Shown piece by piece: positions 2,706 through 44,907 of a DNA stretch of 64,000 nt. A program made the position numbers and the translations under genes. Numbering within the stretch: position 1 is the stretch's first letter; every line of letters begins with the position of its first letter. This DNA is from Elusimicrobiaceae bacterium (GTDB lineage Bacteria > Elusimicrobiota > Elusimicrobia > Elusimicrobiales > Elusimicrobiaceae). Where the stretch lies: contig JAQVSV010000001.1 of NCBI GenBank assembly GCA_028700325.1, positions 28,085 to 92,084 on the forward strand, in the 5' to 3' direction. The notes below the pieces were generated by a model, which worked only from the letters and a program-made list of their open reading frames with translations, had not been told where the DNA came from and ran no database searches.

Positions 2706-2708
2706 AAC

Positions 2709-20331: not shown

Positions 20332-20337
20332 AATTAT

Positions 20338-23320: not shown

Positions 23321-23394
23321 CGGCCCGTACGGGATTCGAACCCGTGGTCTCTGCCTTGAGAGGGCAGCGTCCTGGGCCGCTAGACGAACGGGCC
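23321..23394 (-). tRNA. tRNA-Glu (CUC), CCA not encoded
   Basis: Reverse complement: GGCCCGT-TC-GTCTAGCGGCCCAGGAC-G-CTGCC-CTCTCAA-GGCAG-AGAC-CACGGGTTCGAATCCCGT-ACGGGCC-G. It is very similar to canonical bacterial tRNA-Glu. Confidence 0.9.
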
Positions 23395-23492
23395 CGGCAA
23401 AAAGAAGCTGTTAGCAGATTATATCAAATTCCGCTTCTTTTGACCGCCTTTTTGCTTGTGGGCGCATTCAAGGCACTGGTGCAGCAAAACCG

Positions 23493-23990
23493 TTAAACAC
23501 TTCTGTTGGTGTATAAACCCCCGGACATTTCCGGGGCCGATTGTTTAGCCGCTGCTCGATTCTTCCGATTTTCCGCTTCCTGTATCTTGGCGGAATCCGT
23601 TTTCTTTGGCAAAAACCGCCGTATCAAACCGTTCGTATTTTCTACCGTTCCTTTCTCCCAGCTGTGGTACGCCTCACAAAAATATGACCGCGTTCCGAGT
23701 TCCCGGTTCAGCTTATTGTGTTCATGGTTTTCTGAACCGTTGTCGTATGTTATGCTTCGCCTGAAGTGCGCCGGGCGCTCCCCAGGCGTGGCGCTTGGTG
23801 CCGCGCGAAGATTAATTTCTGTTCATCTGCTCCTGCGTTTGATGGTAATGGCAAGGGTGTGTTTCGAGTGGCCGGGCGGCTCGGCTGCGGTCAGCCCGGA
23901 TCAGGCAAATGCTCCGTTGCGGTGATATTGGTCACATTACGGATACACTCCCTGACGGGACTGGCGGCCCGTATCCTCGCACTGTATTGC
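23493..23990 (-). pseudogene. decayed IS30-family transposase remnant (C-terminal DDE region; no start codon; internal stop)
   Basis: My minus-strand translation gives ..ERPAHFRRSITYDNGSENHEHNKLNRELGTRSYFCEAYHSWEKGTVENTNGLIRRFLPKKTDSAKI.., ending at a TAA at 23493-23495. This matches the IS30 signature (ITFDNG.EF...YF..PY.SWQRGT.ENTNGLLRQY.PKGTD). A TGA interrupts the frame upstream, near 23825. The upstream limit is approximate. Confidence 0.6.
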
Positions 23991-24071
23991 ATTTGCATCA
24001 GTTAAGGGTTACAATGTAGCGACATTCGGGTTATAGCAAGCAGAGTTAATTTCGGCGGCTCAGGGGAAGCT

Positions 24072-25616: not shown

Positions 25617-25649
25617 GCCCGCTCTGCGGGCGTAACAGGGAGAGTTTTG

Positions 25650-26873
25650 ATGATATTCAAAGCTGCGAAAAAGGCGTTGTTTGTATTGACAGGCTGTATG
25701 TGCGTTGCTTCGCCCGCTTTTGCGGAGGCGGTGCCTTATTTCAGCGCGGATGTGCTTGGCGGACAGTATTTTTACGACGGCAACAGCGGTTCTCTTTCGG
25801 CCAACGCCGACGTGACCGCTTCCGTAGGGCTGGACGCCGGGAGCTGGTTCCTTACGCCGATTTACGAGGGGCGCTATCAGAGCACCCAGCAGGTTTATGA
25901 TATCGTGGGCGGCGGCACGATGTTTAACCAGATGATGAGCCATCGGCTGTCGCTTTCCGCGATTTATGAGTTCGCTTATGGCTGGACGGTCAAGCCGGAA
26001 GCCGGCTACAAGATTTATTATCTGAACGAAACGCGCGACGAAAAATGGGGGACCGGGCTTTTTGATTACCGCCGCACGAACACCGCCGTAACGGTGGAGC
26101 ATATTTACGCGGATCCGTTTTCCGTGCGGTTCGAGGCTGATCTGTACTGGCTGAAATTCCCGAATTACACCTCGCTTGAATCGCAGGTCGGCGGCGATAT
26201 GGCGCGGGAGCTGGCCGGCAAGGATGTGATTAATTCCAGCAATCTGGCGTTTACCGCCAGCATCAACGGCCGCCTGAACATGTTTTTGTGGGATGCGGCG
26301 CTGGGCTACACCAGGCAGTCGTTCGGCAGCCAGCATGTGGTCAACGAGCTGGGCCTTTTTGACAGCGCGACACGCAACGACAATCTTGTTTCCGGGCGGG
26401 CCACGCTGAAATATCCGGTGAAACTTTCGCCTTCCTCGATTGTCATTCCGGGGCTCAGCCTGACCTGTGCGCATAACGGTTCCAACCAGAACAGCTATGA
26501 CGCCACCAGCGCGAAGTTTGTGCCGGAGTTTTATAATTACTCGAAAGCGCGCGTCGGCGCCGACGCGGAGTACCGGCGGCTGGTGCCGGAGTATAAAAAC
26601 AAGTATCTGGCGGTTGATTTCGGTTTGTCTTACGGACGGACCAGCTATCCTTCAAGGCCGGTGCAGAATTCCGCCGGGGCGTACGGTACGGACAATATTT
26701 ATCTCAACGAGTATGTGTGGCGACTGTCGGGCTCGTACCCCGTGTCACAGAAAGTTGATGTCGTGGCCAGCGTCATGTACGGCAACCAGACCTCCAACAT
26801 GAGCTATGAGAAACTATATGTTTACAATTTCAACATTTTCACCTATCTGGCCGGAGTGAAATATGAATTCTGA
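25650..26873 (+). CDS. outer-membrane beta-barrel protein (orphan family)
   Basis: Signal peptide MIFKAAKKALFVLTGCMCVASPAFA. Alternating-hydrophobicity strands rich in Y/G/S/N. The C-terminal YLAGVKYEF ends in Phe, an OMP sorting signature. A TTG at 25647 is an alternative start. Confidence 0.55.
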   Translation: MIFKAAKKALFVLTGCMCVASPAFAEAVPYFSADVLGGQYFYDGNSGSLSANADVTASVGLDAGSWFLTPIYEGRYQSTQQVYDIVGGGTMFNQMMSHRLSLSAIYEFAYGWTVKPEAGYKIYYLNETRDEKWGTGLFDYRRTNTAVTVEHIYADPFSVRFEADLYWLKFPNYTSLESQVGGDMARELAGKDVINSSNLAFTASINGRLNMFLWDAALGYTRQSFGSQHVVNELGLFDSATRNDNLVSGRATLKYPVKLSPSSIVIPGLSLTCAHNGSNQNSYDATSAKFVPEFYNYSKARVGADAEYRRLVPEYKNKYLAVDFGLSYGRTSYPSRPVQNSAGAYGTDNIYLNEYVWRLSGSYPVSQKVDVVASVMYGNQTSNMSYEKLYVYNFNIFTYLAGVKYEF

Positions 26874-29800
26874 AAACATGGCAGTCGTGCCGCCTGAAAA
26901 ACGGGAGAACATTATGGCGCGGTTCTTTAAGCATTTGACCAAATACCTGTGCGCGGCGGTTGCGGCGGCGGCCTTGTCCGCGGGCGCGGCGCAGGCTTAT
27001 ACCATAAGCGGCTATGTGCGGGATCAGAGCGGCAACAGCATTTCAGGCGTCAGCCTCAACGGCTTTTATCCCGGCGCCACCATTTACGCCACTACCGACG
27101 GCGCGGGTTTTTATTCGCTTTCATTTCCCACCGCCGGCGTTTCCTGCGCGGTGGTGCCGCAGGTAAGCGGGCCGGGCGTATATTTCACACCCGAACGGGC
27201 GGATTTCACGCTCACGCAGGATGTCACCAGCGATTTCGTGCAGAATGTGAGCGCCCAGGACGGCGGCCAGTGGGAGTTTGCGGAGGTGGCGGCCGGCGTT
27301 TCCGCGCGGCTGGCCGCAAATGAATCCGGCATACCGTTTATGGCGTATGCCGTAGAGCAGGGCAGCGCGGTTTACGCGAGTATAGCAGGCGGTTCTATTC
27401 AGGCTCTTTTTACGGCTCTCGCCGATACGGCTGCCGTGCCGGCTCCCGCAGTTTACGGTGGCCACTCTTTCATGGCGTATAAATCCCTCTCATCAAATAT
27501 CATGCTGGCAAGCGATGAAACAGGAGTGTGGACTTCCACAATAGCGGCTGGCGCGGGGCCGTCGCTTGACGTGTCTTTGCGGGTAAATTCGTTCGGCAGA
27601 TATCTGCTGTACCGCGGCACGTTTTTGACATTGATGCATGACGGTGCGGAGTCCGTCGTTTCGACTGATGCGGCCTGCGGCCTGAAATCGGCGCTGGCGG
27701 TGGATTCGTCAGGCACGGCGCATGTGCTGTACAGCTGTTCCGGCTCGCCGCAGCGGCTTTTTTACGCGAAGCTGTCGGGCGGGGAATGGGTTTCGGCGCT
27801 GGTGGCGAGCGCTTCGGAGGATACGTTCGATTCCGTTTCCCTGGCTGTTGATTCCGGCGCGCTGCCCTTCGCGTCCTATGTGCTGGCCTCGTCCGCTGAC
27901 GGAAAACGCACGCTTTTCGCGGCGCTGCCCTCCGAAAGTTTCACAGCAGAAGTAAGCACCGGTATCGTCAGTTACAATGCGGTCGCGTTTATAAACGAAA
28001 CGGGCAGGAGCGTGCTGTTTACCGCGACCGACGGGTCCGGCGTGCCGTACCTGCAGAACCGGACTTACCTGTCTTCAGCCGAATTTTCCGACAGCATGAT
28101 AAGCCAGGCTTACGCGCGGCAGATTTCGCTGGTGTCCGAAATCGGGCCCTATATATCTTACGCGACACCGGAAAACCGGATTTTTGCAGGGCGGATGGCC
28201 ACTTCTTCTGTCACCTGCGCTATTTATGGAGCCGTTACGCAGAACAGCGCCGGTCTGTCCGGCGTGACTGTTTCTGTTTATGGCGGCGCGTCCAGCCATA
28301 CTGCCACCACCGATGCGGGAGGCTATTATGCGGTGACGGGCCTTTCAACCGGATCTTATGTGATCACGCCGGCGCTGGCGGAAAAGGTGTTTGAGCCTGC
28401 GCAGGCGACTGTCAATCTGCAAAGCGATACCGAGATTGATTTCACGGCTGCTACAAAAACCTATTCGGTAAGCGGCTCGGTGGCGGCGGGCGGGGTCGGG
28501 CTGGCTTCGGTGAGCGTGACGGGTGTCAGCGGCGGCGAGTCCGCTTCGGCTGTCACCGACAGCAGCGGCGTTTATCTGCTGACCGGTCTGCCCGCAGGCG
28601 TCTGCACTGTCGCGCCCGGCCGGGCCGGTTATGAATTTGCGCCGGCCGCGAGCAGTTTTACCCTTTCAGCGAACACGACGGGGATTGATTTTGAGGCGGC
28701 CCTGTCGCAGCTTTACATAGCGGGCTACATCATTACGGAAGCGTCCGAGCCGGTGGCGGGCGCTACGGTTACCGCGTACAACGGCCAGATCTCATGGATG
28801 ACGGTCAGTGATGCCGCCGGTCTGTATTCGTTTGCCCTGGCGTCGGGTTCGTATCTGCTGGCCCCGGTGAAAGAAGGCTATGCGTTTACTCCTTCCTCCC
28901 GCACGGTTTCGCTTGCTTCGGCAAGTATTTCTGGCGTCAGCTTTGTCGCCGTTTCCACCGCCAGCATACCGCTTTATGCGCTTGCCGGACAGGTTACGAA
29001 AAACTCCGCCGGGTTAAGCGGCGTCTCGATAGGAATAACAGACGGCAGTCACAGCGAGGAAGCCGTTACCGACGGATCCGGCAACTACGGATTTTATGAT
29101 CTGATGGCGGCGCAGTACACGGTCACGCCGCAGCTGGAAGGGCTGGAGTTTTCGCCGGCTTACTCCGTGGTGACGGTTTCGGGCGACGTGTCGGGCGTGG
29201 ATTTCACGGCGGAGGATTCCGGGGTTCTTTCCGCAACGGTTACGGCGGTAAACACGCCGCAGGCTTACGCGTGGGAGAACTATCCGGCATTCACGCTGGC
29301 GCTGTCGGCCGACAGGAATGTTTTTGTCGGATCGGTGACGGTCAGTTTTGCCGACTCCGGCGTGTCGTATAACGATATCTTCGCGATGTTTCTGTATGAG
29401 AACGGAACTCCGGTCGCCAGTTCCTATAACAGCGATTCCACACTCGGGTCGGCAGTGAAACGGGAAGCGCTTATGCCGGTTTCGCTTTCCATAAGCACCG
29501 CGACCCGCACGTTCACTTTAATGATACAGCCCAAGTCTTCCGCTCTGGGCAAAACCGTTTATCCCGTGTTCGCCGGGTTCAGTTCGGCGGCGGGCCAATC
29601 CGTTACGCCGCTGCCGGTGGGCGGAAATGTCGCGCTGGTCGGCTACAAGGCATATGCCGCCAGCTCCGGCGGTCTGGCGACAAGCATTTCCCTGACCGCG
29701 GGCCAGAGTGCGCTGATTGTCGCGCAGGGCCAGTGGCAATATTCCTCCACCGGCACCGCCGGGCCGGACGGGGTGTCCGGTTCCGTGTGCGGAACCGGGT

Positions 29801-32800
29801 GCCAGCTGCCCGGCTCGCCGCGCGGCATGCTGCTGGCGCGCATCGGTTATTATTCCACGGTTTTTTATCCCGTCGGCTCAAGCGCGACGATAACTTCGCC
29901 GGCCGGAGCCGCGACCGACAGCGTCTATCTGTCCATCAACGACGATTATTTCACTGATAACAGCGGCGGGCTTTTCGTTCTGCCGCAGATAGTTTCACGC
30001 GTGATTGTGTGGACCGGAGCCGGCGGCACGGAATACGCCGCCGAACCGCTCAACTGGAACACCGGCGTCGTGCCCGCCAACGGCGACACGGTGCTGTTCA
30101 GTTCAATGGTTGCGAAAGCCTGCGCATGGAATATCTCTGCCCAGCCGAAACTGATTACGCTGTATTATTATCCCGGCGCGCTGAATGTCGTCGGCAGTTA
30201 TACCCTGCTGGCCGAAACGCTGACGATCAATAATTCCAGGCTGCGGATGAGCGGCACGGCGGCCGGTGCGCGGCCCTACATCAGCGTGGGCACGCTTAAC
30301 GCCATTGATTCCGAACTGGTCTTTTCCGATGCGATGGGCGTTTCTGCCGATAATTTTTCAGTGCTGCGCGGCACGGTAAGCATCACCGGGTCGGATTATG
30401 CCGGTTTCGGCGGGTGCAGCGGGCATTCCGTGGTGCTTGAAAACGCGGCGCTCGATATCAGCAGCGTGGCGTTCCAGAATGCCGGCACCATAAGCGTGCG
30501 CGGCGGTTCGGTTGCGAAATTCGACAACGTGTCGGTCAATTTGAGCGCGGAGGCCTCCTCGCCAATGGTGACTGTTTACGGGTTGTCCGGCTACAACACC
30601 TTTGACCGGTGGAATTTTTACAATTACGGCGGCTCGGCGGTTTACAACGTTATTTCCACGGGCAATGCGTCCGGCGCGCAGGTTGTGTTCGCCAATGCCG
30701 GCGGCAATTACATGGGCAGTGTCCACAGTCTTAATCTGGATGGCGCGCTGCGCTGGGAGCCGGACGGCGGCGGAACCGCCGCGCTGGCGCTCACCGCGGT
30801 TTATTCCGCTACAGACACATACACTTACCGGTTTGAAGTGACGACGGTTACCGGCACGCCGGTCGCGGCAGGCAGCGCGGCAGCCGGAGCCAAGAGTATT
30901 TTATTCAGCGGGCTTACCGCTCCGGCCACTTATTATATAAAGGCATACGCCGATGAAAATGGCAATGCTGTCGCTGACGGTTATGAGCCGAAAGGGAAGG
31001 CGGCTGTCGCGCTGGTCGCCAATTCCAGCGGCGCCGCCAGCGTTGCGCTGGCTGATTTCGGCAAAGCCGCGGGGTATCTCTACAGCGTTTCACAGAGCGG
31101 CAAGGTGCTCGGACAGGCGTACAGCTCCGGCGCGCTGGTTGATCAGGTGGAGCTGGGTTCTCTTGCTGACGGAACCACCGTGCACTGGGAGCTTTATCTG
31201 CCGACCGGAACTTATACGCTTAACGCGTTTGTTGATGTCAACGGCAGCGGTTCGCGTGACAGTTTCGAAGCCGGTTTCTCCGCGGAAAACGTTGAAATCT
31301 CAAAAGGCGCGGAGAATTATCTGGGCAACGCCGGGCTGGTCAGCGCGGCTGTCAGCACGGTTTCCGTGTCGGCCGCGGCGGGGCATGACGGCATCATTTA
31401 TGCGCGCGGCGGCTCCGCGACGCTGTTTAATCTTCTGGCGTCGGCTTCAGGCGACCCGGCGGTCATCTCCTCGTTCTCGTTTTTCTCCGCGGGCAGTTAT
31501 TACGCGGCGGGCGCGTACGCTGTCAATGTCACGCGCGATTCGAACTATAACGGCCTGTGCGATGCCGCGGACAGCGTGCTCGGTTCCGCGTATGCGAACG
31601 GCGGGGCGGCGGTTCCGCTGACGGTGAGTTTCAATCCGGTCGTTGTTTCCACCGGGCAGAGCGAGCGGTTTTGCGTCACGCTGGCCGGAGCGGTTGCGCT
31701 TGAGCGCAACAGTACGGTAGGCGTTTCGCTTGCCTCTTCCGGGATCGGCGCTGCGAACGGGCATGTGGAGTTTGCCGCCATAACCTCCACCGTGACGGTT
31801 AAATTCAACGTGGACGCGGCTGTCGCGGTCAGCTCCTTTTCTGGCGGAACGGGCACGGGCGTGTATCTGGAACCCGGCATGGTGGTCAGTCTGGTTTCCA
31901 CCGGCACCTGGTATATTTCCGGTTCCGCGGCCGGCGCTGGCGGAGCGAATTACAAAGGCGGTATTCTGCCGGATGTCAATTCCGGCGCGCTGATGGCGCG
32001 CGTCGGCATCGGTCCGTGGTTCGCGGTGGGTTCGGCTTCGTCGTTCACTTATACGATGATTTATAGCGGCGAATTGTATTTCGCCATGAACAAATACCAG
32101 ACTTCATCGGCGTCCGGCAACCTGCTTGTTGATTTCAGCGCGGTCAATCCCGGCAACGGCGCGGCGGGCAGCGTCAGTTACGCCGGCGCCAAAGCGCAGC
32201 AGCTTTTTATAAAAGCGCAGTCCGTTTCATCCGGCGATGTTCTGGCTTCCACCAGCATGGCGTTGAACGGAGCGGGTTCCTATCCCTACAGCCTGACTGG
32301 CATTTCCACCGGCACGGCGTTTTTCATTAAAGCCTATTGGTCTGACGTTTCCACTTCCGCGGTCGGCCAGTACCGCGAAGAACTCACCATGTACACAGGC
32401 AGCGTTCGCACCGGTCTGGATTTCGCGGTTTTTGACGGGTACGGGGCGCTGCCGCTCACGGTCACCTATTACGGCTCGTTCGCAGATAAACTGATTGCGC
32501 ATATGATAGTCGGGGCCAGCGAGTTCGAGCGGACTGTTGCAACCGGTACGCAGACCCTTGCCCTGCCCGCGCCGGGTATTTACCGCGTGGCCGTTTTCGA
32601 GGATCGCAACGGCGACGGAGAACCCGCCGGACTTGAGAACATGGGCATGTTCGGGTATGACGGGCCGGTGGCGCTGTTCGAGCAGAACGGCGGCACCGTC
32701 GCGGTTACCGTAGGCGGGACTTCCGCGCCTGTCGCGATTACCGTATTGCCGAAAGGCGGACTGGCGGGCGTCGGAAAAATCTGCGGTCTGTCGGGCCGGT

Positions 32801-38800: not shown

Positions 38801-41800
38801 CGGCGCTGGTTTCCACATCCGCGGCCGCTGCCTCTTCTTATTCCGGGCAGATCAATTTTGTCGCGGGCGCGAGCGGTATCCAGCAGGGCGGCCGCATAAG
38901 CGTGGCGCTGCCGTCCGGCCTGTACGCTACGCTGACCACCGTTACGGCATACGGGTACGGAGTAGTGCAGGCCAGCGCGCCCGGTTACGATTCCGGGACG
39001 CTGAGTGTCAGCGCGGGCCAGTCTTACGCCGAGCTGACCGTGCTTTCGGAAGCAGGCCTTGCCGCGGGCGCGACGGTGCAGATTACGATCGGCCCGCTCT
39101 ATCTGCCATGTGCCAGCGGCGATTTCGCGTTCAGCGTAGGGTCCAGCCAGAACGGCTCGCTGGCGCCGAAAGCGCTGCGCAGCGGCCAGCCGGTTCTGAG
39201 AATTCTGTCCGGCTCGGCCACGCGTTTTACCGGCAGGCCGGCGGACGCGGCCGAGTCTGCGGCGTATAACTTTTCCATAGTGTCGGGCGAGGATGTGCCG
39301 TTCGTGGCGACCGCGCTTGACACCTGCGGCAATCCCGCAATCGCCGGGTCAACCGTAAATGTGAATATCCATGCCCAGAAGCAGTCTACGGTGACGTGGA
39401 TGTACAGCGACGATCCCAGCGTGCTGTTCAGCACCGGTTCGCAGTTTGTTTCCGTCGCGACGGTGGCGTTCGCGGCGGGCATGAGCAGCGCGCCTTTCAC
39501 CGTCAGGGCCACGCAGGCCGGGGCGCAGAAAACCATGGTGTTCCGGTCGTCGTCGGGCATGTACACCGATTCGGTGTATTTCACCGCGCTTGCCGGGGTT
39601 CCGATAACCGGGGCCGCCGTTTCCAGCGCGGTTTACGGGGTGGGCAGATCCTCCGTCACGATCGTGCCCAGCGTGAATGCGACCGGCGGAGCGGCCTACA
39701 TAAATTTCAATCTCTCGCTCGCGAACACTTACGACAACTGGCAGGTGGTTATAGCGTCCAAACCGTTTATTGCCGGCGCGGCGGTCAGCGAAATCTGGCA
39801 GTTCTGGGGCAGCGGCACGCCGGTGCCCGGTAAAGTGGTATGGAACGGCAGGTACAGCTATAATAACAGCATTGTGCCGTCCGGCTGGTATTATGTGAAG
39901 ATAGCATACAGCGGATTTACCGACACCAGCCTCAAGATATATGTGCAGTCGCCGGAGGTTTATGGCGTCGTGCGGGACGAGTCCGTTTCGCCCGCGGCGG
40001 CTGTCGCCGGCGCGGTGATCAACGTGTTCAGCGCCAGCGGCGGCGGATACGCCAAAACCGCCGAGGACGGCAGTTATTCCATTCCCGGCCTTTCGAGCGG
40101 CTCTTACCGGTTCGAAATCGCGGCCAGCGGGTATGTGAAACTGTCTACGCAGGTGACGCTGGGCGCCGCCCGCACCAATGTTGATTTCGGCATGGAGAAA
40201 GCGGCGCAACTGGTTATCGTGCCGTCGCTTTCGCAATCCAACCCCTATCCGAACGATAGCGGCGGCGGGGTCAGCGCGTATGACGGAACGCAGAACTATT
40301 TCACCAACATCAGGCTGAAGGGCGGCACCACCTCGTTTGTTGCGGCTGACGTGTGGGACAGCCTGACCAACAGTTATGTTTCCAGCGACAGGATCGCGCT
40401 GGATGTCACTCCGGGCGTGTACAGCGTAAACGGCTATCTGGACAATTACGGAAACGTGTATGTCGAGCGGGTGGAAGTGTCCGCTTCCGGCGCCACGGTC
40501 GAACTGCCGGCTTTTGAGAGCCGGCGCAACGTATCGGGCACGCTGACGGTAGCTTCGGCTGCGTACAGCCGGTATGCGTCGCTGAACGCGGAACCTGTAA
40601 ACGGCAACAGCTCAAGCCATTGGGGCTGGGCATCGGCTGAAATACCCGCCAGCGTTTCCGGCGCGGCTTATCATGTGTACGGGATTGACGCGGGTTCCTA
40701 TACCATCAGCGCCACGGGCGACGGACTGCCGCGCGTGTCCACGCTGGTCTATATAACAGCCAATGATCTCAGCGGCGTTGACTTCGACTTCACCAAAGTG
40801 CAGAACAACGTCATACGCGGCACCGTCACGGTGACGGTGCAGGACGCGGCGCAGTGGTCTGCCCTTAAAACCCAGATGGACGGGAGTTTTATGGAGGCCC
40901 GGCTTACCGCATGGGCGCCCAAAGGGTCTGGCTATGCGTCTGAAAACGTGAAATTCACTTCCGCGAGCGTGAGCGGGCTGGTTGCCAGAGCCGCATACAC
41001 GCTTACGGGCCTTGACGCAGGAGCGGAATACCAGGTTTACGCGGAGCTCAGTCCTTACAGCGAGGGCGATCCCGGCGAATATACATCGGTGGGCGCGCTG
41101 CCCAAACTGGTCACTATTTCGTCCGCGACAGGCTTGGCGAACCTTGATATCGGTTTCGCGCGGGCGTCCGGCACGATAACCGGCACGGTGTATCTGCCGG
41201 AGGGCAGCAGTGATTTCGGCAATGTCGCCATGACGGGCATGGTGACCCAGTCGGAAAACCCCTACGAGATCGGGCAGGTGATGAACGAAGGCGGTTCGGA
41301 TCCCGTCACTTCATTTCCGGGTTTCAGGTGTTTTAACGGCGCGGCCGCCGTTAACGGCGTCTGTGCGGACGGCGTTAACATAGCCAGTTTCACGGTAACC
41401 GGACAGAAGACCAAGACCATGGACATGGTTTTCACTTACGGAGCCACCGGGTTGAGCAGGAGTTACAAACTGACCGTTGTCAACGGCAGCACGGTTACGG
41501 CGGTTGTTGACATGCGGGCCGACACCTATTCCATTTCGGGCGCGGTCATAAACCGTATCAACGCCAATTCGCTGAATACCATGGCCAGGCTGATCGCCAA
41601 TTCCACGGTCACCGTGCCGGCGGGTTATCCGGTGCAGGAAGGCACGCTGCCGATCGAAATGGTGCGGCGCAGCGCGAATTCTTTCTCGACTACCGTGGAT
41701 TATGACCCCAGTCTGGTGCGCGTGGGTTATATCACGCAAAGCGGCACCTATACCATAACGGGCCTGCAGGAGGGCGTTTATACGCTGCGTACCCGCGGGC

Positions 41801-44800
41801 TCAAGGAATGCACGACCTGTTCCGTCGCCGTCGCGCCGGTCGAGAAACTGGTTACCATGCGCCACGCCATTTATAACACGGGGCTGGTTGTGGTGGATTC
41901 GGCGCAGACCTCCACTTCCGCGGTCAATGTGACGCTGATTGACGGCTGGGACGTTTCCGGTTCCATTTCGCTGCCCAACGGCGTCAGGGATTCCCGCGTT
42001 TTCGCGCTTACCCTGACAAACAAGCGCGGGGACGTTGTGCGTTCGACCCAGATCGCGCTAGGCAACGTTTACACGGGCGAAAAAGCCAATTCCGCCTCGT
42101 ATACGTTCAGCCGCCTGCCAAGCGACGATTTTTACACGCTCGCCGTGGCGGACACCGCCACTTCAACTGCCGCGGTGCGCTATACCGCCGCGCCGATAAC
42201 GTTCCCGTCGCGCAAGGTGTCGCCTTCGGGTCTGCAGTCGAGCCTGACCGGCCAGAATGTTGAAATGGTGGTCGGCGCGCTGCTTTCCGGCAAATTGCGC
42301 GACGCCAATTCCGGCGCGCTCATTACCGTGACGAACGCCACACTGCTCGCGCCCAGTTTCAGCTGTTTCGCGCAGGCCAACCCGTGGGTTACGGGCGGCT
42401 ATTACGCTACGGTTTCTTCCGTGGCGGTCACGATCAACAACGCCACGGAATACAAGCCTGTCGAAGCGGACGGCACATTCCGCATCGGCCCCGTGATGCC
42501 GGGCGTCACCTATGACGTGCAGTGCAGGCAAACCGAATGGAATTCCGGCTATATCCTGCGCGGCGCGCAGAATTATTCGCCCGCTATCGTGGCGGCGGTC
42601 AAGCCTTCTGCCGGCGAGAGCCGCGATCTTGGCGTGCTGGATCTGAAGCAGGGGCAGTCCATCACCGGCACCGTCAGGGATTCGGCCGGCGCGGCTGTTC
42701 CCAACATGCTGGTCAAAGCCAAACCTTCCTCGTCCGATATTGACATGGAAGTGAAGACCTATACCAGCCAGACCGGCGCGTTCAGCCTGTGGGTGTCCAC
42801 TTATGTGTCGCGGTATTATGACATTACCGCCAGCCCCCGCGAGTATTACGACGGGGTGTCCACTGGCACGTTAATGTATAAGGAGGTAACGCTCCGTAAT
42901 CAGGATCTGCAGGACCGGACTACCTTTGCGTTCACGCTCAGCCCCGTGCGGGGCGGAGTCGCTGGCCGTGTGATTACGGCGGACGGCGGCGCGCTTTATT
43001 ATCCTTACGGGGATCTGCGCGGCTATCCCGCCGCCGCGGTTTTTCTCCAGCCTTACGGGGTGGTGCCCGTGAATAATCCGCTGGGCGACATTGAAACATA
43101 TACCCAGTCGGACGGCAGTTTCGAGGTGCCCGGTGTTTCGACCGGAATATATACGCTCAAGGTTGTCAGCATCGGTTACGGGTTCGCGTCATCCACGGTC
43201 AATGTGGCCAGCACCGGCACGCTGGATGCGGGCACCATAACGCTGCGCCGCGGCGCGAGCGCCGAAGGCACGATACTGAAAACCGACGGCAGTTCGCCCA
43301 GCACCGATGAAATCGGTTCGGTGATAGCGGTTTCGCCGGACTTCTCGGAATACCTGTTCGGCACGCTCGACACGGATGCGCTGTCGCGGTCAGTGCAGAG
43401 CTACAGCCTGACGGGGTTCAGCACCGGAACTCTTTATTCCATCGCGCTGGTGTCGCCTGACGGAGAGGATATTACGTTCCCCGTCGAGGGCCAGGTTTCG
43501 TTCGACGAGGCCAGCTCGACCGATACCGTCACCGCCGACCTGACTTATGCGCCGGGCGGCGTTGACTGCGGCGCGGTGGCCAAGAAAACCGGAACCGCCA
43601 CGTTCAGCCTCCAGTTCACCTGCTCGCGCCAGTTAAGAAGCCTCACCGCGGCGGACAGCACGGTTTCCCAGCTGGTGTGGCTTAGCAGCATAACCGCAGG
43701 CGGCGCGCCTGTTTCCGGCGACGACGGAACCGGCACGCTCGGTTACGGCGCCATCACCGCCGACCGGCGCGGACTGGCCGCCTCCTACGTCATGTCGAGC
43801 ACTGAAGACAGCCGCTTCAGCATTTTGCTTACGGCATATTTCAACGCCATTGATCCGGCCACAGGCGACTATTTCCATATCGCCAAGCGGTTTGATTTCT
43901 ACACCGGCATCCAGAGCGCGACCAGCCGCCGCATCAGCAACCTCATCGGCGGCGCCTTGAACGTGGAATCGGCTGAAGGCGAAAGCGAAAGTTCGGGGCT
44001 GGATTTCAATCCCGGCTGTCTCAATAACTCGACCGGCACGTTCGTGGTGGATTTGTCCACCACGATCGGAATGCAGAAGTTTACCGCGCTCGAAGACGTG
44101 CCGGCAACCCAGTCGCTCGCTTCGGCGGGCGCGCGCGACCGGTTCGGCGCGGGCCGCCTGCCGCAGGAAATTGTGGACGCGAGAAAAGCGTTCGCGGAAA
44201 AACGGATAACGGCTTCATTCCGCGCGCAGTCGAGTTCCACGGCCACTTACCGGGCGATCAGCTCGTTCTACAATATCTTCCTGCCCGCCGGCATCAACCA
44301 TATCCTGCGCCAGAACGCGCGGCTGACGCTCAGTTATGACGCGGTGTCCGACCCCAATAACGTCAATGTCTGGTACTATAATCCCGACACCGGGCGGTAC
44401 CAGCTGGAAGCCAGCAACCGGACCATTGACACCATCAACAACACCATCGCGGTGGATGTGGACCACTTCTCCACCTTCGTGGTGATGGAAACGCAGCCGG
44501 TGTATACCTCCACCACCGCATACGGCGGGCTGAATCTGGCGGCGTACAACTTCCCCAACCCGTTCAATCTTGAAACCAAGACGAAGCAGGTCAACACCTC
44601 GCCGGGTTCCGGATCCTATACTGCCGGACAGAATATCACCACGGAGGGCACTGTTATAAGGGTGGCGGTGCCGGCGTCGGCTGTTTCGGGCACGGGCCAT
44701 ATAAAAATCTATAATATGGCCGGCGAACTGGTGCGCAAGATCGGCATCAGCGGCGTTGCGGGCGGCGCCTACGAGTATTTCGCGTGGGACGGGCGCAACA

Positions 44801-44907
44801 ACAGCGGCGAAAAAGTGGCCAGCGGAGTTTATATCGGAGAGGTTAAGGTCGATGATCAGCAAACTTTCTTTAAAATGGCCGTAGTCAAGGATTCAAAATA
44901 CCGTTAA
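26863..44907 (+). CDS. giant mosaic secreted surface protein (6,014 codons) with T9SS-type/FlgD-Ig-like C-terminal sorting domain
   Basis: The frame is uninterrupted for 18,045 nt. GGAG lies 6 nt before ATG 26863. An alternative ATG at 26914 is also SD-preceded. Signal peptide ..KYLCAAVAAAALSAGAAQA. It carries many recognisable beta-rich modules (see sub-features). No competing ORF on any frame approaches this length. Confidence 0.88.
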   Translation: MNSENMAVVPPEKRENIMARFFKHLTKYLCAAVAAAALSAGAAQAYTISGYVRDQSGNSISGVSLNGFYPGATIYATTDGAGFYSLSFPTAGVSCAVVPQVSGPGVYFTPERADFTLTQDVTSDFVQNVSAQDGGQWEFAEVAAGVSARLAANESGIPFMAYAVEQGSAVYASIAGGSIQALFTALADTAAVPAPAVYGGHSFMAYKSLSSNIMLASDETGVWTSTIAAGAGPSLDVSLRVNSFGRYLLYRGTFLTLMHDGAESVVSTDAACGLKSALAVDSSGTAHVLYSCSGSPQRLFYAKLSGGEWVSALVASASEDTFDSVSLAVDSGALPFASYVLASSADGKRTLFAALPSESFTAEVSTGIVSYNAVAFINETGRSVLFTATDGSGVPYLQNRTYLSSAEFSDSMISQAYARQISLVSEIGPYISYATPENRIFAGRMATSSVTCAIYGAVTQNSAGLSGVTVSVYGGASSHTATTDAGGYYAVTGLSTGSYVITPALAEKVFEPAQATVNLQSDTEIDFTAATKTYSVSGSVAAGGVGLASVSVTGVSGGESASAVTDSSGVYLLTGLPAGVCTVAPGRAGYEFAPAASSFTLSANTTGIDFEAALSQLYIAGYIITEASEPVAGATVTAYNGQISWMTVSDAAGLYSFALASGSYLLAPVKEGYAFTPSSRTVSLASASISGVSFVAVSTASIPLYALAGQVTKNSAGLSGVSIGITDGSHSEEAVTDGSGNYGFYDLMAAQYTVTPQLEGLEFSPAYSVVTVSGDVSGVDFTAEDSGVLSATVTAVNTPQAYAWENYPAFTLALSADRNVFVGSVTVSFADSGVSYNDIFAMFLYENGTPVASSYNSDSTLGSAVKREALMPVSLSISTATRTFTLMIQPKSSALGKTVYPVFAGFSSAAGQSVTPLPVGGNVALVGYKAYAASSGGLATSISLTAGQSALIVAQGQWQYSSTGTAGPDGVSGSVCGTGCQLPGSPRGMLLARIGYYSTVFYPVGSSATITSPAGAATDSVYLSINDDYFTDNSGGLFVLPQIVSRVIVWTGAGGTEYAAEPLNWNTGVVPANGDTVLFSSMVAKACAWNISAQPKLITLYYYPGALNVVGSYTLLAETLTINNSRLRMSGTAAGARPYISVGTLNAIDSELVFSDAMGVSADNFSVLRGTVSITGSDYAGFGGCSGHSVVLENAALDISSVAFQNAGTISVRGGSVAKFDNVSVNLSAEASSPMVTVYGLSGYNTFDRWNFYNYGGSAVYNVISTGNASGAQVVFANAGGNYMGSVHSLNLDGALRWEPDGGGTAALALTAVYSATDTYTYRFEVTTVTGTPVAAGSAAAGAKSILFSGLTAPATYYIKAYADENGNAVADGYEPKGKAAVALVANSSGAASVALADFGKAAGYLYSVSQSGKVLGQAYSSGALVDQVELGSLADGTTVHWELYLPTGTYTLNAFVDVNGSGSRDSFEAGFSAENVEISKGAENYLGNAGLVSAAVSTVSVSAAAGHDGIIYARGGSATLFNLLASASGDPAVISSFSFFSAGSYYAAGAYAVNVTRDSNYNGLCDAADSVLGSAYANGGAAVPLTVSFNPVVVSTGQSERFCVTLAGAVALERNSTVGVSLASSGIGAANGHVEFAAITSTVTVKFNVDAAVAVSSFSGGTGTGVYLEPGMVVSLVSTGTWYISGSAAGAGGANYKGGILPDVNSGALMARVGIGPWFAVGSASSFTYTMIYSGELYFAMNKYQTSSASGNLLVDFSAVNPGNGAAGSVSYAGAKAQQLFIKAQSVSSGDVLASTSMALNGAGSYPYSLTGISTGTAFFIKAYWSDVSTSAVGQYREELTMYTGSVRTGLDFAVFDGYGALPLTVTYYGSFADKLIAHMIVGASEFERTVATGTQTLALPAPGIYRVAVFEDRNGDGEPAGLENMGMFGYDGPVALFEQNGGTVAVTVGGTSAPVAITVLPKGGLAGVGKICGLSGRFMFVAGHGIPGTAGYQAENWESSWLDGAAANASCLSLNYDIGMLRAATDYSLLLFNDSNMNDIYDDGEKFSLLAGPISIATGMVVNRDITLVAVSTVPVMPSAISTYAVTASSIVWTWPSVFGATGYMLFFTSGSTVTLSATSYTETVGVPNTRSGLYGVAAYNAIGLGPVKTVENAVYTRAAKVALSVMSADNVSVRLAVDRAGNPAATAVNIYRSANSTAAYVLVSSLTAGATQFADIYGVVPGVQYWYAATAFNGNYVAGETSVPVSTVTPSAAGADYVRGTVYYSGRQQGNLRVELFGSAVRDGWAVANGSAAFSAIASFNGFMLAGTESGGVYKSTDGINWVSAATVSGSVKSFAQNGSVYYLSGSKGIYSGSGSGSWSLVYAASSGMGRLLVYNGKVYCGDGNRLAQSSGSGFDVAETGIPAARAISSLAVFGGYMYAGVLPSVSAYTETQGDYVYRAALASLGSWTASLNAKMLGVYDLAVWNGRLYAASGNSGLIFSLETADGVWSNTAVAATKVVNFSSFRGQLAVAAQTGPGVLVSPEHGRWAAVAPSGVVYMNGLCQFNGKLYAAAAARLYAGFAQPAYSVVSPVQSQNSFYISGVPAGTPYYPRAFVDVTGDAVLEPGEDSVFYSTSVMAAGTANMTLAVSTGAPAAPGAPSACAVNGVVSVLWTAPSSASNLLGYRVYRSTAQAGPYAEISGSEPAGYVPWNRTSFSDSNPPSGSVYYRLKSLDWGYNESAGVTGLPVNVLQPGRIEGSLYSLSASTSVQYYVTVSSVSSPLGAALYSIPLADGQSYSAPNLSDGLYYVRAFADANANRVFDSGEALGAYGGIAYPYGVYVNYGSVSGSKNVTVCPVTRIRPGDSLNVVISSADCEIRDSGVSRHGKIFSFEVGYGDGKVSPGSGIQLTASGGGLGSAELRLIDPDFNAMFNTGTIYYGADTEGFYYLEAAAPAENAAGDVNVSLYINSNSGGKITGVASYYGASTGTAVFMLYRKAEYDAGNYWPVNMATAPVADNAASFTMYGMENGLFYMTAYVDVNADGVRETWEPYGFYGSVQPEALAVSSGAASRVSLALTDPVMGSISGYVTYSGSSRGSVRVEARQPREGNDSNDYVLYASTMFARASENVSAPFTLAGLPPSASYYITAYVDANDNMSGDTLEPNVFEGPYTVAAGSVTENVSVSIADIGTGAPGYASITGTVTYAGGAVTSRLMLGFFTDTEGRHMPYTAFVEPDGATDTWHFSRSGIMGGTTYYIGAVLDFNSNGFDDAGEPKTMFMDGDGNPVPVYPAADGSAAVSMTLSALPDGSISGTARYYGSQAGKYMSVNIYSDNCRSDYCSARYRVLLTTATQYPFTGEFLQDSTSYSIYAYVDVNENQTQDNGEPDYSSYPDKLELGEADRALTGVDFTVTRSEDRWNNATLRASFDYDGAQRGDVYMRLYQNGGAVASRTSSPVSYTDGAVVVMAGLSTGVYTADAFIDTNGNGLYDSVFEPYAQVKYGGSAQLALTYKDPVLYDASATFKDPGSASLSSGALTVAGLIAVKSSAAGALRTLLFKYSDSADAMQIPLLNGLIARTAGVGCSSYSFTALSSGNYLVQAFIDVNGNYQPDDGEPWGQSAVALVSPVPSSGTLALDFAVSDRTSLNVGGEFAYQASSATGYVQERPGSYARLFSISGSAGDVINAGMTPASGFSYARLYLYGPYMNQTGSALRYNLLASAEADAQTGAASILAYKLAQSGVYTLAAVAYEEAAAGGFKLKYLRSGQGSGSISGTVDYTGSRGGKFIVAIFGDANVYTGSALLYTTLPVAGAFSFSGLPGGSNYYIGAFIDTNGNGIRDAGEDYGYYSVAGSTVPQGVSVLNGQDVSGLRVTVNSVSDPASQAQVSGVLNYSGSLAGNARVEAWTSSAYTGTPAGVRNIASPVYPQAFSMQVPGGSAYYFRAYADSAPYGEFDLNAEAAGAYNSGQPVYLKQGGNSSLDYVIQLNDPGYDPTASAVGGEGYAALVSTSAAAASSYSGQINFVAGASGIQQGGRISVALPSGLYATLTTVTAYGYGVVQASAPGYDSGTLSVSAGQSYAELTVLSEAGLAAGATVQITIGPLYLPCASGDFAFSVGSSQNGSLAPKALRSGQPVLRILSGSATRFTGRPADAAESAAYNFSIVSGEDVPFVATALDTCGNPAIAGSTVNVNIHAQKQSTVTWMYSDDPSVLFSTGSQFVSVATVAFAAGMSSAPFTVRATQAGAQKTMVFRSSSGMYTDSVYFTALAGVPITGAAVSSAVYGVGRSSVTIVPSVNATGGAAYINFNLSLANTYDNWQVVIASKPFIAGAAVSEIWQFWGSGTPVPGKVVWNGRYSYNNSIVPSGWYYVKIAYSGFTDTSLKIYVQSPEVYGVVRDESVSPAAAVAGAVINVFSASGGGYAKTAEDGSYSIPGLSSGSYRFEIAASGYVKLSTQVTLGAARTNVDFGMEKAAQLVIVPSLSQSNPYPNDSGGGVSAYDGTQNYFTNIRLKGGTTSFVAADVWDSLTNSYVSSDRIALDVTPGVYSVNGYLDNYGNVYVERVEVSASGATVELPAFESRRNVSGTLTVASAAYSRYASLNAEPVNGNSSSHWGWASAEIPASVSGAAYHVYGIDAGSYTISATGDGLPRVSTLVYITANDLSGVDFDFTKVQNNVIRGTVTVTVQDAAQWSALKTQMDGSFMEARLTAWAPKGSGYASENVKFTSASVSGLVARAAYTLTGLDAGAEYQVYAELSPYSEGDPGEYTSVGALPKLVTISSATGLANLDIGFARASGTITGTVYLPEGSSDFGNVAMTGMVTQSENPYEIGQVMNEGGSDPVTSFPGFRCFNGAAAVNGVCADGVNIASFTVTGQKTKTMDMVFTYGATGLSRSYKLTVVNGSTVTAVVDMRADTYSISGAVINRINANSLNTMARLIANSTVTVPAGYPVQEGTLPIEMVRRSANSFSTTVDYDPSLVRVGYITQSGTYTITGLQEGVYTLRTRGLKECTTCSVAVAPVEKLVTMRHAIYNTGLVVVDSAQTSTSAVNVTLIDGWDVSGSISLPNGVRDSRVFALTLTNKRGDVVRSTQIALGNVYTGEKANSASYTFSRLPSDDFYTLAVADTATSTAAVRYTAAPITFPSRKVSPSGLQSSLTGQNVEMVVGALLSGKLRDANSGALITVTNATLLAPSFSCFAQANPWVTGGYYATVSSVAVTINNATEYKPVEADGTFRIGPVMPGVTYDVQCRQTEWNSGYILRGAQNYSPAIVAAVKPSAGESRDLGVLDLKQGQSITGTVRDSAGAAVPNMLVKAKPSSSDIDMEVKTYTSQTGAFSLWVSTYVSRYYDITASPREYYDGVSTGTLMYKEVTLRNQDLQDRTTFAFTLSPVRGGVAGRVITADGGALYYPYGDLRGYPAAAVFLQPYGVVPVNNPLGDIETYTQSDGSFEVPGVSTGIYTLKVVSIGYGFASSTVNVASTGTLDAGTITLRRGASAEGTILKTDGSSPSTDEIGSVIAVSPDFSEYLFGTLDTDALSRSVQSYSLTGFSTGTLYSIALVSPDGEDITFPVEGQVSFDEASSTDTVTADLTYAPGGVDCGAVAKKTGTATFSLQFTCSRQLRSLTAADSTVSQLVWLSSITAGGAPVSGDDGTGTLGYGAITADRRGLAASYVMSSTEDSRFSILLTAYFNAIDPATGDYFHIAKRFDFYTGIQSATSRRISNLIGGALNVESAEGESESSGLDFNPGCLNNSTGTFVVDLSTTIGMQKFTALEDVPATQSLASAGARDRFGAGRLPQEIVDARKAFAEKRITASFRAQSSSTATYRAISSFYNIFLPAGINHILRQNARLTLSYDAVSDPNNVNVWYYNPDTGRYQLEASNRTIDTINNTIAVDVDHFSTFVVMETQPVYTSTTAYGGLNLAAYNFPNPFNLETKTKQVNTSPGSGSYTAGQNITTEGTVIRVAVPASAVSGTGHIKIYNMAGELVRKIGISGVAGGAYEYFAWDGRNNSGEKVASGVYIGEVKVDDQQTFFKMAVVKDSKYR
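28210..29215 (+). repeat. four tandem carboxypeptidase-regulatory-like (CarboxypepD_reg/Cna-B-like) domains inside the giant ORF
   Basis: The repeating pattern is Y.(I/V)(S/A)G.V......L.GV.V........(A/T)(T/V)TD..G.Y....L..G.Y.(V/I).P...G(Y/L).F.P......(L/V).......DF.A, about 80-85 aa each. A fifth copy is at 26998-27240 and further copies are at ~39960-40200, ~42650-42850 and ~42950-43250. Confidence 0.65.
29620..29990 (+). other. LecA/PA-IL-like lectin-fold module 1 (giant ORF)
   Basis: LIVAQGQWQYSSTGTAGPDGVSGSVCGTGCQLPGSPRGMLLARIGYYSTVFYPVGSSATITSPAGAATDSVYLSINDDYFTDNSGGLFV tracks, from memory, Pseudomonas LecA (ITIVAAGWASYGP..GPQG...C....CGALVMKIG.....PV......LIYNDVPGTYGNNSGSFSV). Confidence 0.45.
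30000..30760 (+). other. right-handed beta-helix-like segment (giant ORF)
   Basis: Begins VWTGAGGTEYAAEPLNWNTGVVPANGDTVLF, as in autotransporter-type beta-strand repeats. Short repeats of about 20-25 aa rich in G/S/N/V follow. Confidence 0.4.
31800..32150 (+). other. LecA/PA-IL-like lectin-fold module 2 (giant ORF)
   Basis: MVVSLVSTGTWYISGSAAGAGGANYKGGILPDVNSGALMARVGIGPWFAVGSASSFTYTMIYSGELYFAMNKYQTSSASGNLLVDF has the same strand order as module 1. Confidence 0.4.
33090..33620 (+). other. two tandem fibronectin type III-like domains (giant ORF)
   Basis: P.AIS.Y.VTASSIVWTWPSV.GATGY.LF...Y..AYN..G.GP. and ..SV.L.V....NPAAT.V.IYRS......Y..V.......F.D....PG..YWY...AFNG. A third FN3 is at ~34770-35060 (VSVLWTAP....LLGYRVYRS...GPY). 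Confidence 0.6.
33715..34545 (+). other. beta-propeller-like insert with a BNR/Asp-box-like motif and Kelch-like NGxxY blades, nested inside one DUF2141-like module
   Basis: YKSTDGINWVS (Asp-box-like). Blades marked by VYNGKVYCGDG, VFGGYMYAGV, VWNGRLYAASG, SFRGQLAVAA and QFNGKLYAAAA. The host module starts at GTVYYSGRQQGNLRVELFGSA and resumes at NSFYISGVPAGTPYYPRAFVDVTGDAVLEPGED. Confidence 0.5.
39685..39950 (+). other. internal FlgD-Ig/T9SS-CTD-like domain in the middle of the giant ORF
   Basis: AAYINFNLSLANTYDNWQVVIASK...GKVVWNGRYSYNNSIVPSGWYYVKIAYSGFTDTSLKIYV has the same pattern as the true C-terminal domain (..IKIYNMAGELV...WDGRNNSGEKVASGVYIGEVKV). An invasin/Big_1-like stretch ATALDTCGNPAIAGSTVNVNI precedes it. 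Confidence 0.45.
44530..44904 (+). other. C-terminal sorting domain, T9SS type A / FlgD-Ig-like
   Basis: AYNFPNPFNLETK...HIKIYNMAGELVRKI...YEYFAWDGRNNSGEKVASGVYIGEVKVDDQQTFFKMAVVK matches the Por_Secre_tail pattern (NYPNPFN...I.IYD..G..V......G.....WDG.N..G..V.SGVY). Confidence 0.7.

Follow-up and report, generated by a model that had tools for sequence, protein, structure and literature searches.

SprB of Flavobacterium johnsoniae is a surface protein of 6,497 amino acids (aa) encoded in the operon sprC, sprD, sprB, sprF, and in the secretion system of type IX (T9SS) the proteins PorU and PorZ remain attached to PorV and PorQ, with their C-terminal domains retained. SprB, a type B cargo, is kept on the surface by a PorP-like barrel that is encoded adjacent to it (PMC9143113; PMC12618676). 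PorP/SprF barrels hold SprB and PG1035 (PMC9143113), and cognate shuttles are described for the C-terminal-domain cargo of Bacteroidota (PMC12618676). Elusimicrobiota have been reported to be enriched in proteins of more than 5,000 aa (PMC11573180). Here we describe a gene for such a protein, a giant of 6,014 aa, in a stretch of 64,000 nt (the window) from an uncultured Elusimicrobiaceae bacterium of gut type (GCA_028700325.1, contig JAQVSV010000001.1, 28,085-92,084 of the forward strand). The giant open reading frame (ORF) is a real, conserved single gene for a secreted mosaic protein. Judged by alignment, it is the third gene in a conserved cassette of four and carries ~4,200 additional residues N-terminal to a conserved core, and we consider it moderately probable that the product is a Sec-exported, lectin-tipped surface fibre that docks via its C-terminal domain to a partner barrel. 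All coordinates are positions in the window, and aa numbers count from M1 of the 6,014-aa ORF.

A close counterpart in architecture is SprB/SprF, which likewise comprises a repetitive surface protein of ~6,000 aa bearing a Sec signal and, at its C-terminus, a sorting domain, encoded directly 5' of an outer-membrane barrel in a small operon with accessory genes. However, the terminal domain of the giant resembles type A, or FlgD-Ig, rather than type B, its partner belongs to the PorV/PorQ family rather than PorP/SprF, and its module content is different; it comes from Elusimicrobiaceae, outside the Bacteroidota, and the window shows no genes for gliding or for the T9SS core. In its type of terminal domain the giant resembles the T9SS type A system of Porphyromonas gingivalis, with a similar C-terminal beta-sandwich (TIGR04183, PorU, PorZ) and a PorV/PorQ-family partner, and the binding of PorU to PorV and of PorZ to PorQ is the docking mode that we propose for the giant. 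Whereas one PorV serves many non-adjacent cargos in Bacteroidota, each cargo in the Elusimicrobiota loci has its own adjacent PorV-like gene. The system of the giant also stays under the curated cutoffs for TIGR04183, PorV, and PorQ, and sortase or lipopolysaccharide attachment is not evidenced for it.

The giant adhesins of type I systems (LapA, SiiE, Bap-like, MpIBP, and RTX proteins) follow the same logic of an Ig-like stalk with ligand modules far from the anchor. In contrast to them, the giant would have its anchor at the C-terminus instead of the N-terminus, carries a putative Sec signal peptide, and lacks RTX nonapeptides, a type I secretion signal, and a retention module, with no type I genes nearby. 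Pfam and NCBIfam searches with ten overlapping tiles returned no RTX, MARTX, LapA, Bap, or two-partner-secretion family (E<=0.01), and none appeared at E<=10 with 20 domain-sized pieces of the giant.

The cassette consists of the following four genes.

24072..25616, + strand: cassette gene 1, a secreted FecR-domain protein of 514 aa (Pfam FecR, 59 bits)
25647..26873, + strand: cassette gene 2, a protein of ~407 aa (NCBI MDD4003623.1, 'hypothetical protein', start 25650)
26863..44907, + strand: cassette gene 3, the giant ORF of 6,014 aa with an ATG start (NCBI MDD4003624.1)
44933..45907, + strand: cassette gene 4, a PorV/PorQ-family outer-membrane barrel of 324 aa (NCBI MDD4003625.1, 'PorV/PorQ family protein'), 25 nt after the stop codon of the giant

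The four genes are spaced by 25-40 nt or overlap. Cassette gene 4 matched the NCBIfam model NF033709 (PorV_fam) with 158.3 bits (cutoff 90) over profile positions 1-326 of 326, which places it in the PorV/PorQ family; no PorP/SprF model was found among its NCBIfam matches. When used as a query, it retrieved 331 homologues at E<=1e-10, and those with names were nearly all from Elusimicrobia. A cargo-PorV gene pair was present in all nine related loci inspected. The full order of FecR-domain gene, ~410-aa protein gene, cargo gene, and PorV-like gene was found in L089, L090 (first gene cut by the contig end), L091, and L093, with a FecR-domain protein of 547-575 aa, a second protein of 405-421 aa, a cargo of 2,049-2,096 aa running from CarboxypepD_reg to FlgD_ig, and a PorV/UPF0164 protein of 306-322 aa. 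Neighbouring starts and stops overlap in these four cassettes, and in L089 and L091 all four products aligned as homologues of those in the window. By sequence comparison, the cargo of the window lineage has grown to three times the ~2,050 aa found in other Elusimicrobiota, through modules added N-terminal to a conserved core of ~1,800 aa.

At the position of cassette gene 1, L089 and L091 carry full-length homologues (34% identity), and L092 and L093 have FecR-domain genes. The NCBI entry (MDD4003622.1, 'FecR family protein') starts later (483 aa), while the Logan call and the longest ORF give 514 aa; the 514-aa form carries a signal-peptide-like N-terminus. Leptospira LipL45/Lsa33 are similar in being secreted FecR-type-domain proteins without the anti-sigma transmembrane part (NCBIfam E=1e-11 and 3e-8), although cassette gene 1 lies far under the family cutoffs (44.6 vs 420 bits) and its C-terminal ~350 aa are unrelated. 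The product of cassette gene 2 has a signal-peptide-like N-terminus and ends in ...YLAGVKYEF, where hydrophobic residues alternate and the last residue is aromatic, as is typical of the C-terminal signal of barrels; it is probably an outer-membrane beta-barrel. It had no Pfam, NCBIfam, or PDB match; homologues with 29-31% identity were found at the same position in L089 and L091, and L092 and L093 encode proteins of 405-409 aa without a Pfam match there. Cassettes can also lie in tandem: a second, partial set of FecR-domain, 409-aa, cNMP-binding, and 3,580-aa proteins follows the first PorV-like gene in L092 (11056-20948), and a 3,457-aa Big_3_3/FlgD_ig protein follows it in L093 (11044-20921).

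The translation of the giant ORF contains a sole stop, the terminal one, and the window contains no N. The deposited NCBI protein, MDD4003624.1, is the exact 6,014-aa sequence from an Elusimicrobiaceae metagenome-assembled genome, named "DUF2012 domain-containing protein". Within the interval, the longest competing start-to-stop ORF has 346 aa (36277..37317, minus strand); from stop to stop, a single antisense frame extends over 591 codons, and none of the remaining frames exceeds 226. GC content at the third codon position (GC3) was 0.66-0.78, against 0.50-0.55 at the second (GC2), in all blocks of 500 codons, and this steady pattern indicates that the coding signal is continuous over the full length. 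No tandem repeats were found in the giant DNA, its longest direct repeat measures 90 nt at 70% identity, and the internal protein repeats identified by self-BLAST are only 25-45% identical, so repeat collapse in the assembly is no concern. The protein is rich in six residues (A 12.9, S 11.9, G 11.1, V 9.5, T 7.9, and Y 6.0%; together 59%) and poor in K (1.9%), C (0.55%), and H (0.4%). A short-read Logan assembly of the same strain (contig SRR22315503_189046) is 100% identical to the window over 18406-25927 and breaks inside cassette gene 2, short of the giant gene. The YchF protein of the window showed at most 56% identity to any GTDB species representative, without synteny, which indicates that the lineage is poorly sampled in GTDB.

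Orthologues of the giant were reached by using the downstream PorV-like gene as the query. In L083 (Logan SRR15116522) and L084 (JGI 3300014208), a long ORF directly 5' of the PorV homologue runs off the contig end; both partial orthologues are collinear, in one piece, with the last ~2,960 residues of the giant (70% and 52% identity, respectively). The ratio of nonsynonymous to synonymous substitution rates (dN/dS) against the giant was 0.10-0.21 for L083 and 0.24-0.36 for L084 in every block of 500 codons, and the giant is under purifying selection. Complete giants occupy the same locus position in L085 (6,763 aa; GCA_964520045.1), L087 and L088 (ENA; 6,098 aa), and L092 (5,927 aa), and the last ~3,290 residues of the L085, L087, and L088 proteins align with aa 2777-6014 of the window giant at 37% identity.

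An exhaustive HMMER search of aa 801-2000 against 1.84 billion representative proteins gave only 88 matches at E<=0.001, 12 of them at E<=1e-30, including proteins of 6,763, 5,588, 5,355, and 5,189 aa. P0129 (6,763 aa), P0130, P0131, and P0135 are collinear with two segments of the window giant, aa ~880-2284 and ~2575-6014. The relatives vary most at the extreme N-terminus (aa 1 to ~880): P0128 alone shares the variable N-terminal part (aa 46-790, 27-34% identity), and the other giants differ there. By its collinear modules, its conserved C-terminal core (~1,800 aa, tail ...FFKMAV.K), and the PorV-like gene beside it, the window giant is a member of what we define in this analysis as the Elusimicrobiota giant-cargo family. 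A word-indexed homology search with aa 1501-2900 gave no match at E<=1e-5, and known giants were missed by the same search; for the window protein, one reason is that its 90% cluster is represented by a 48-aa fragment, and the composition of the giant also floods the list of 8,000 candidates. GTDB genomes and JGI metagenomes scanned with aa 1501-2900 likewise gave no match.

These results bear on what the original prediction had said of the gene. Its open frame of 6,014 codons is a single plus-strand ORF with one terminal stop, and the composition that it described, rich in A/G/S/T/V/Y and poor in Lys and Cys, was borne out. Its statement that other frames break within about 350 codons or fewer holds for ORFs with a start codon and is slightly low when frames are counted from stop to stop. 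It had named orthologous loci with the region split into several separate genes as a refuting outcome, and had suggested that domain order be compared among orthologues; the outcome favours a single gene with collinear order. The combination of modules had been presented as unlike that of RTX, Bap, LapA-like, MARTX, and two-partner-secretion giants. The absence of such signatures from Pfam and NCBIfam agrees with this, but the combination is not unique, as a collinear giant family exists and the protein was already in NCBI.

From the N-terminus to the C-terminus, the giant is divided into the following regions.

26863..26997, + strand: signal-peptide region (aa 1-45), read from the sequence: a basic n-region, an Ala/Leu-rich core, and AQA before Y
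26998..29232, + strand: variable N-terminal part (Pfam, self-BLAST, repeat test)
29245..29637, + strand: beta-sandwich without a family (aa 795-925); AlphaFold2 model all strands, pLDDT 70-86, no Pfam match
29650..29988, + strand: LecA/PA-IL-like lectin domain 1 (aa 930-1042), by Foldseek and profile, with D and N of the calcium motif retained
29995..30762, + strand: beta-helix-like region (aa 1045-1300); AlphaFold2 model with many short strands, pLDDT 40-65
within 30742..33087, + strand: DUF2141-like domains at aa 1294-1487 and 1752-2075 (Pfam DUF2141, 40.4 bits; hidden Markov model (HMM) of the giant's own repeats)
within 30742..33087, + strand, between these DUF2141-like domains: a stretch without a family (aa 1495-1650) and LecA-like domain 2 (aa 1652-1762)
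33100..33648, + strand: two FN3-like domains (aa 2080-2262), by alignment against Pfam fn3
33814..34560, + strand: propeller-like insert (aa ~2318-2566; Pfam DUF6242, 27 bits against a cutoff of 29)
34750..35082, + strand: third FN3-like domain (aa 2630-2740), by alignment with orthologous copies
35338..35712, + strand: PPC-like insert 1 (aa 2826-2950), by alignment against Pfam PPC
35686..37689, + strand: six DUF2141-like domains in a run (aa 2942-3609; own-repeat HMM, E 1e-24 to 1e-33 each)
37705..38106, + strand: PPC-like insert 2, degenerate (aa 3615-3748), by alignment against Pfam PPC
38062..38727, + strand: two more DUF2141-like domains (aa 3734-3955; own-repeat HMM)
38725..39957, + strand: conserved region without a family (aa 3955-4365), with a FlgD-Ig-like motif at its end, kept in seven orthologues
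39460..44532, + strand: C-terminal core (aa ~4200-5890), mostly transthyretin-like or CarboxypepD_reg-type beta-sandwiches
44545..44904, + strand: C-terminal sorting-type domain and short tail (aa ~5895-6009; Pfam FlgD_ig, 38 bits against a cutoff of 27)

The terminal domain was the best-conserved short stretch among 12 family members, with the motifs NFPNPF, WDGRN..G..VASGVY, and FFKMAV.K (FFKMAVVK in the window). All 12 matched TIGR04183 (Por_Secre_tail) at E<=1 (best 5.9e-6), and all 12 terminal domains matched the C-terminal ends of PorU and PorZ. A profile of the terminal domain compared with the PDB matched the C-terminal domains of PorZ (5m11) and PorU (6za2) as well as FlgD. TIGR04131, the model of the type B domain, matched one of the 12 (E=0.024); on this and on the lack of a PorP/SprF match for cassette gene 4, the giant is not classed as T9SS type B cargo. 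At the sequence level, then, the FlgD-Ig domain of the giant resembles a type-IX-like C-terminal sorting domain, a likeness that the original prediction had overlooked, as it had the PorV/PorQ-family barrel encoded by the next gene.

The C-terminal core, with Pfam matches to CarboxypepD_reg, EMC7_beta-sandw, and NOMO-like families, is the part most conserved against L083 (up to 81% identity, dN/dS 0.10-0.17). Five proteins of ~1,850-2,100 aa retrieved with the C-terminal 1,200 aa (P0123-P0127) align from aa ~4200-4390 to 6009 at 29-31% identity. PDB sequence searches with the raw halves of the giant returned only traces of NOMO and FlgD.

In the conserved region ahead of the core (aa 3955-4365), no convincing Pfam match was found. 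Its end (aa ~4285-4365; 39715-39957) contains an internal W(D/N)GR...VPSG.YY motif as in the terminal sorting domain, located where the ~2,050-aa homologues start aligning. The comparison of this segment with the terminal domain was weak (hhalign probability 55% over 32 columns); CHU_C was matched in two of seven orthologues (E=0.004), and there was no PDB match. Given the hhalign result and the lack of a PDB match, we did not accept aa 4285-4365 as a clear second, internal sorting domain. The motif might mark an old fusion of two proteins that each had a C-terminal domain.

At the opposite end, the giant has a signal-peptide-like N-terminus, which reads by eye as ...MARFFKHLTKYLCAAVAAAALSAGAAQA followed by YT, and as read from the translation it thus carries the Sec signal of T9SS type A cargo. 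An alternative start, M18 at 26914, has GGGAG 6 nt 5' of it and may be the true start; NCBI uses M1. The variable part that follows comprises a CarboxypepD_reg domain (aa 46-125), repeats of ~45 aa (aa 126-452), and four further CarboxypepD_reg domains (aa 453-790), and Pfam also places CarboxypepD_reg at aa ~4367-4450 and ~5267-5460.

For aa 795-1310, AlphaFold2 supplied with ten orthologue segments gave a model whose first 330 residues had a pLDDT (predicted local distance difference test) of 70-90; no significant match to this segment came from the BFVD viral fold library. In a Foldseek comparison, lectin domain 1 matched the LecA entries 2vxj, 4cp9, and 1l7l with target-normalised template modelling (TM) scores of 0.78-0.80 at a probability of 1.00 (root-mean-square deviation (rmsd) 2.7-3.3, E from 4e-5). 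A profile of both lectin domains with their orthologues matched LecA residues 10-115 at E=6.3e-9, so that the lectin domain of the giant falls with PA-IL on both fold and sequence profile; scanned alone, lectin domain 1 scored 14.8 bits against Pfam PA-IL, under the cutoff of 22.5. It keeps D and N of the LecA calcium/galactose motif (INDDYFTDNSGG). The ND...NNSG residues of LecA, which we take to be the calcium and galactose ligands, align with NDD...DNSG in copy 1 (NDDYFTDNSG) and with NKY...SASG in copy 2, which was located by LecA profile alignment. The fold is common to LecA/PA-IL of Pseudomonas aeruginosa, PllA, and EclA (rmsd 2.7 A, 24-25% identity), but LecA is a free tetrameric lectin of 121 aa, whereas the giant embeds the domain twice in a 6,014-aa chain. 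The adjoining beta-helix-like region is retained in orthologues, and its Foldseek matches to beta-helix enzymes were of low probability.

The middle of the protein is dominated by DUF2141-like domains. Two regions matched Pfam DUF2141 above the gathering cutoff of 24.4 bits (40.4 bits, and 41.3 bits in the run at aa 2942-3609), and the HMM built from the giant's own repeats found ~15 copies between aa 1294 and 3955. One of these is split into halves (aa 2245-2317 and 2567-2638) around the propeller-like insert. This insert is missing in P0129, P0130, P0131, and P0135, the alignments of which jump from aa ~2284 to ~2575, and its absence from four orthologues points to a lineage-specific domain insertion. 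When window and orthologous copies were scanned together, six of 17 matched Pfam fn3 (best E=4.8e-8) and 11 of 14 matched Pfam PPC (best E=1.3e-7). The FN3-like copy at aa 2630-2740 gave no Pfam match when scanned singly; neither PPC copy of the window matched singly either, and the second was also unmatched in the alignment scan. PPC-like insert 2 is without the Cys pair and the DDD..GN motif present in distant orthologues.

The module list of the original prediction was largely recovered by these analyses. Its signal peptide, CarboxypepD_reg domains (Pfam, 90.7 bits), two LecA-like folds, DUF2141-like array, FN3 domains, two PPC-like inserts (at ~35340-35700 and ~37740-38090), nested propeller-like insert, and C-terminal FlgD-Ig domain were all supported, the PPC-like inserts through the joint scan of window and orthologous copies. 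For the N-terminal propeller, about seven ~45-aa repeats are present, but only three of the seven beat shuffled sequences in a leave-one-out test, so that the propeller itself is weakly supported and a confident seven-bladed one was rejected; for the beta-helix, the model is strand-rich, but the low pLDDT and low-probability Foldseek matches leave it a putative feature. A Big_1-like domain was dropped, as its match (E=0.0064) lay beneath a CarboxypepD_reg match.

Based on these features, we propose that the giant would be exported by the Sec system into the periplasm, and that its terminal FlgD-Ig or type-IX-like domain would carry it across the outer membrane and retain it there. By analogy with the Bacteroidota barrels, the terminal domain would dock onto the PorV/PorQ-family barrel encoded 25 nt downstream. 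The ~45-50 beta-sandwich modules (CarboxypepD_reg-like, ~15 DUF2141-like, FN3, and PPC) may form a long stalk, and the variable N-terminal end, away from the cell, is a candidate glycan binder with its LecA-type domain 1, possible beta-helix, and propeller-like modules. Such a distal end might attach to surface carbohydrates of a host, prey, or substrate. The location of the variable part among relatives, at the N-terminus, is in line with a binding role of that end. More speculatively, the crossing of the outer membrane may involve the ~410-aa barrel-like protein or the protein with the FecR domain.

Several observations weigh against this proposal. T9SS has been described as confined to Bacteroidota and their relatives (PMC7463736), and SprA/Sov, PorK/L/M/N, and PorU were not among the scanned ORFs of the window; with no core T9SS genes there and T9SS so confined, the crossing of the outer membrane is left unexplained. 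The terminal domain of the window giant reached 18.2 bits (E=0.0019), under the TIGR04183 cutoff of 23, and cassette gene 4 fell under the equivalog cutoffs for PorQ (NF033711, 91.3 vs 220 bits) and PorV (NF033710, 67.7 vs 250 bits). The AlphaFold2 model of aa 5455-6014 was poor (pLDDT 52), and Foldseek searches with this C-terminal 560-aa model returned only generic antibody-like Ig matches. The calcium motif is lost in LecA-like copy 2, and sugar specificity is not readable from sequence. The surface fibre, the docking, and the glycan binding are thus predictions from sequence. In several loci, moreover, the cassette lies among housekeeping genes, a setting that fits a constitutive envelope component as well as an adhesin.

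This setting leads to a structural alternative, in which the giant, exported and anchored as proposed above, would serve as an envelope or surface coat. Such a coat, shared among Elusimicrobiota, would be either an outer layer built constitutively or a lattice that stabilises the outer membrane; the extra N-terminal modules would only add thickness or variation to it, for instance as a defence against phage or grazers. We regard this as possible but rather unlikely. The cassette is indeed widespread, as judged by the 331 PorV-like homologues with their nearly exclusive Elusimicrobia names; ychF, tRNA-Glu, and metF neighbour it in the window, and tatD, metG-like, and yidC genes in L089, L091, and L093; and it is the C-terminal core, not the lectin end, that is most conserved. 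However, binding proteins are where lectin, PPC, and propeller modules typically occur, the rapid variation of the distal end points to diversification driven by ligands, and none of the known S-layer families was matched by Pfam tiles or PDB sequence searches. The coat and adhesin roles cannot be separated by the sequence data.

A tethered or secreted polysaccharide-degrading enzyme appears improbable to us. Under this explanation, the beta-helix-like region would be a depolymerase or lyase, with the lectin, PPC, and FN3 modules as carbohydrate-binding accessories. The region is kept beside the lectin in orthologues and gave weak Foldseek matches to a phage depolymerase, a GH87 glucanase, and sialidase accessory domains, but these were low in probability or TM score, model confidence over aa 1045-1300 was low (pLDDT 40-65), the region makes up less than 5% of the protein, and neither Pfam nor NCBIfam detected a glycoside hydrolase or lyase family anywhere in the giant. 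An artefactual origin of the giant, through chimeric assembly, erroneous fusion of several genes, or decay of a pseudogene that happens to be open, is very improbable and close to refuted. The giant does stem from a metagenome-assembled genome, and the sole independent same-strain assembly found (Logan SRR22315503) stops short of its gene. However, collinear orthologues, with single proteins of 5,189-6,763 aa among them, come from independent samples and assemblers, dN/dS is far under 1 in every block tested, GC3 is uniform along the gene, the repeats are too short for mis-joining, and the signal peptide and the sorting domain are confined to the N-terminus and the C-terminus, respectively.

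Elsewhere in the window, several envelope-glycan genes lie directly after the PorV-like gene on the same strand (45953-52895, +). They encode an LtaS/phosphoglycerol-transferase-like protein of the sulfatase family (630 aa), a fusion of a GT2 glycosyltransferase with a methyltransferase (417 aa), a ManC-type mannose-1-phosphate guanylyltransferase/isomerase (506 aa), and a 651-aa protein without a family, and a terminator-like hairpin with a 15-bp stem is located at 49329-49362. This gene set is not kept beside the cassette elsewhere, except for a PMT_2 glycosyltransferase in L091. An ORF of 558 aa (60701-62377, -) combines a low-molecular-weight phosphotyrosine-phosphatase-like segment (aa 2-130; weak, 45 bits) with a full serine hydroxymethyltransferase (aa 151-553, 634 bits), which may reflect a genuine fusion or an artefact of start-codon choice in the mechanical ORF list. 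A 406-aa protein (17683-18903, -) consists of two phospholipase-D/nuclease-type halves and resembles DISARM DrmC, NucT, and cardiolipin synthase, all under cutoff. The only Rfam/ARAGORN matches in the window were tRNA-Glu(CTC) at 23321-23394 (-), between ychF and the cassette, and tRNA-Met(CAT) at 6101-6177 (-), further 5'.

Precedents are known for giant surface proteins of Ig-like build, for sorting domains of the T9SS type, and for gene pairs of cargo and barrel. Literature searches for Elusimicrobia together with PorV or T9SS gave nothing relevant, and the giant family and its four-gene cassette with a PorV-like barrel for each cargo outside the Bacteroidota appear to be undescribed. The giant provides a curated example behind the statistical report that Elusimicrobiota are rich in proteins of more than 5,000 aa. 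We also put forward, tentatively and as an unlikely possibility, that the four-gene cassette is a self-contained outer-membrane export-and-anchoring module without the type IX translocon and motor of Bacteroidota. If so, a phylum for which T9SS is not known would have a less complex relative, or a precursor, of the attachment system of T9SS, and its cargo could grow from ~2,000 to ~6,800 residues.

If the giant is a surface fibre docked to its partner barrel, Elusimicrobiota, a deep-branching, mostly uncultured phylum that includes gut symbionts, would provide every large surface protein with a PorV-like barrel of its own, and display by a "C-terminal domain plus cognate barrel" would extend beyond the Bacteroidota. 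The cassette would then offer a tractable four-gene unit for the study of how such domains cross the outer membrane and are retained there, and the LecA-type lectin at the predicted distal end gives a concrete idea of what the cells may attach to.

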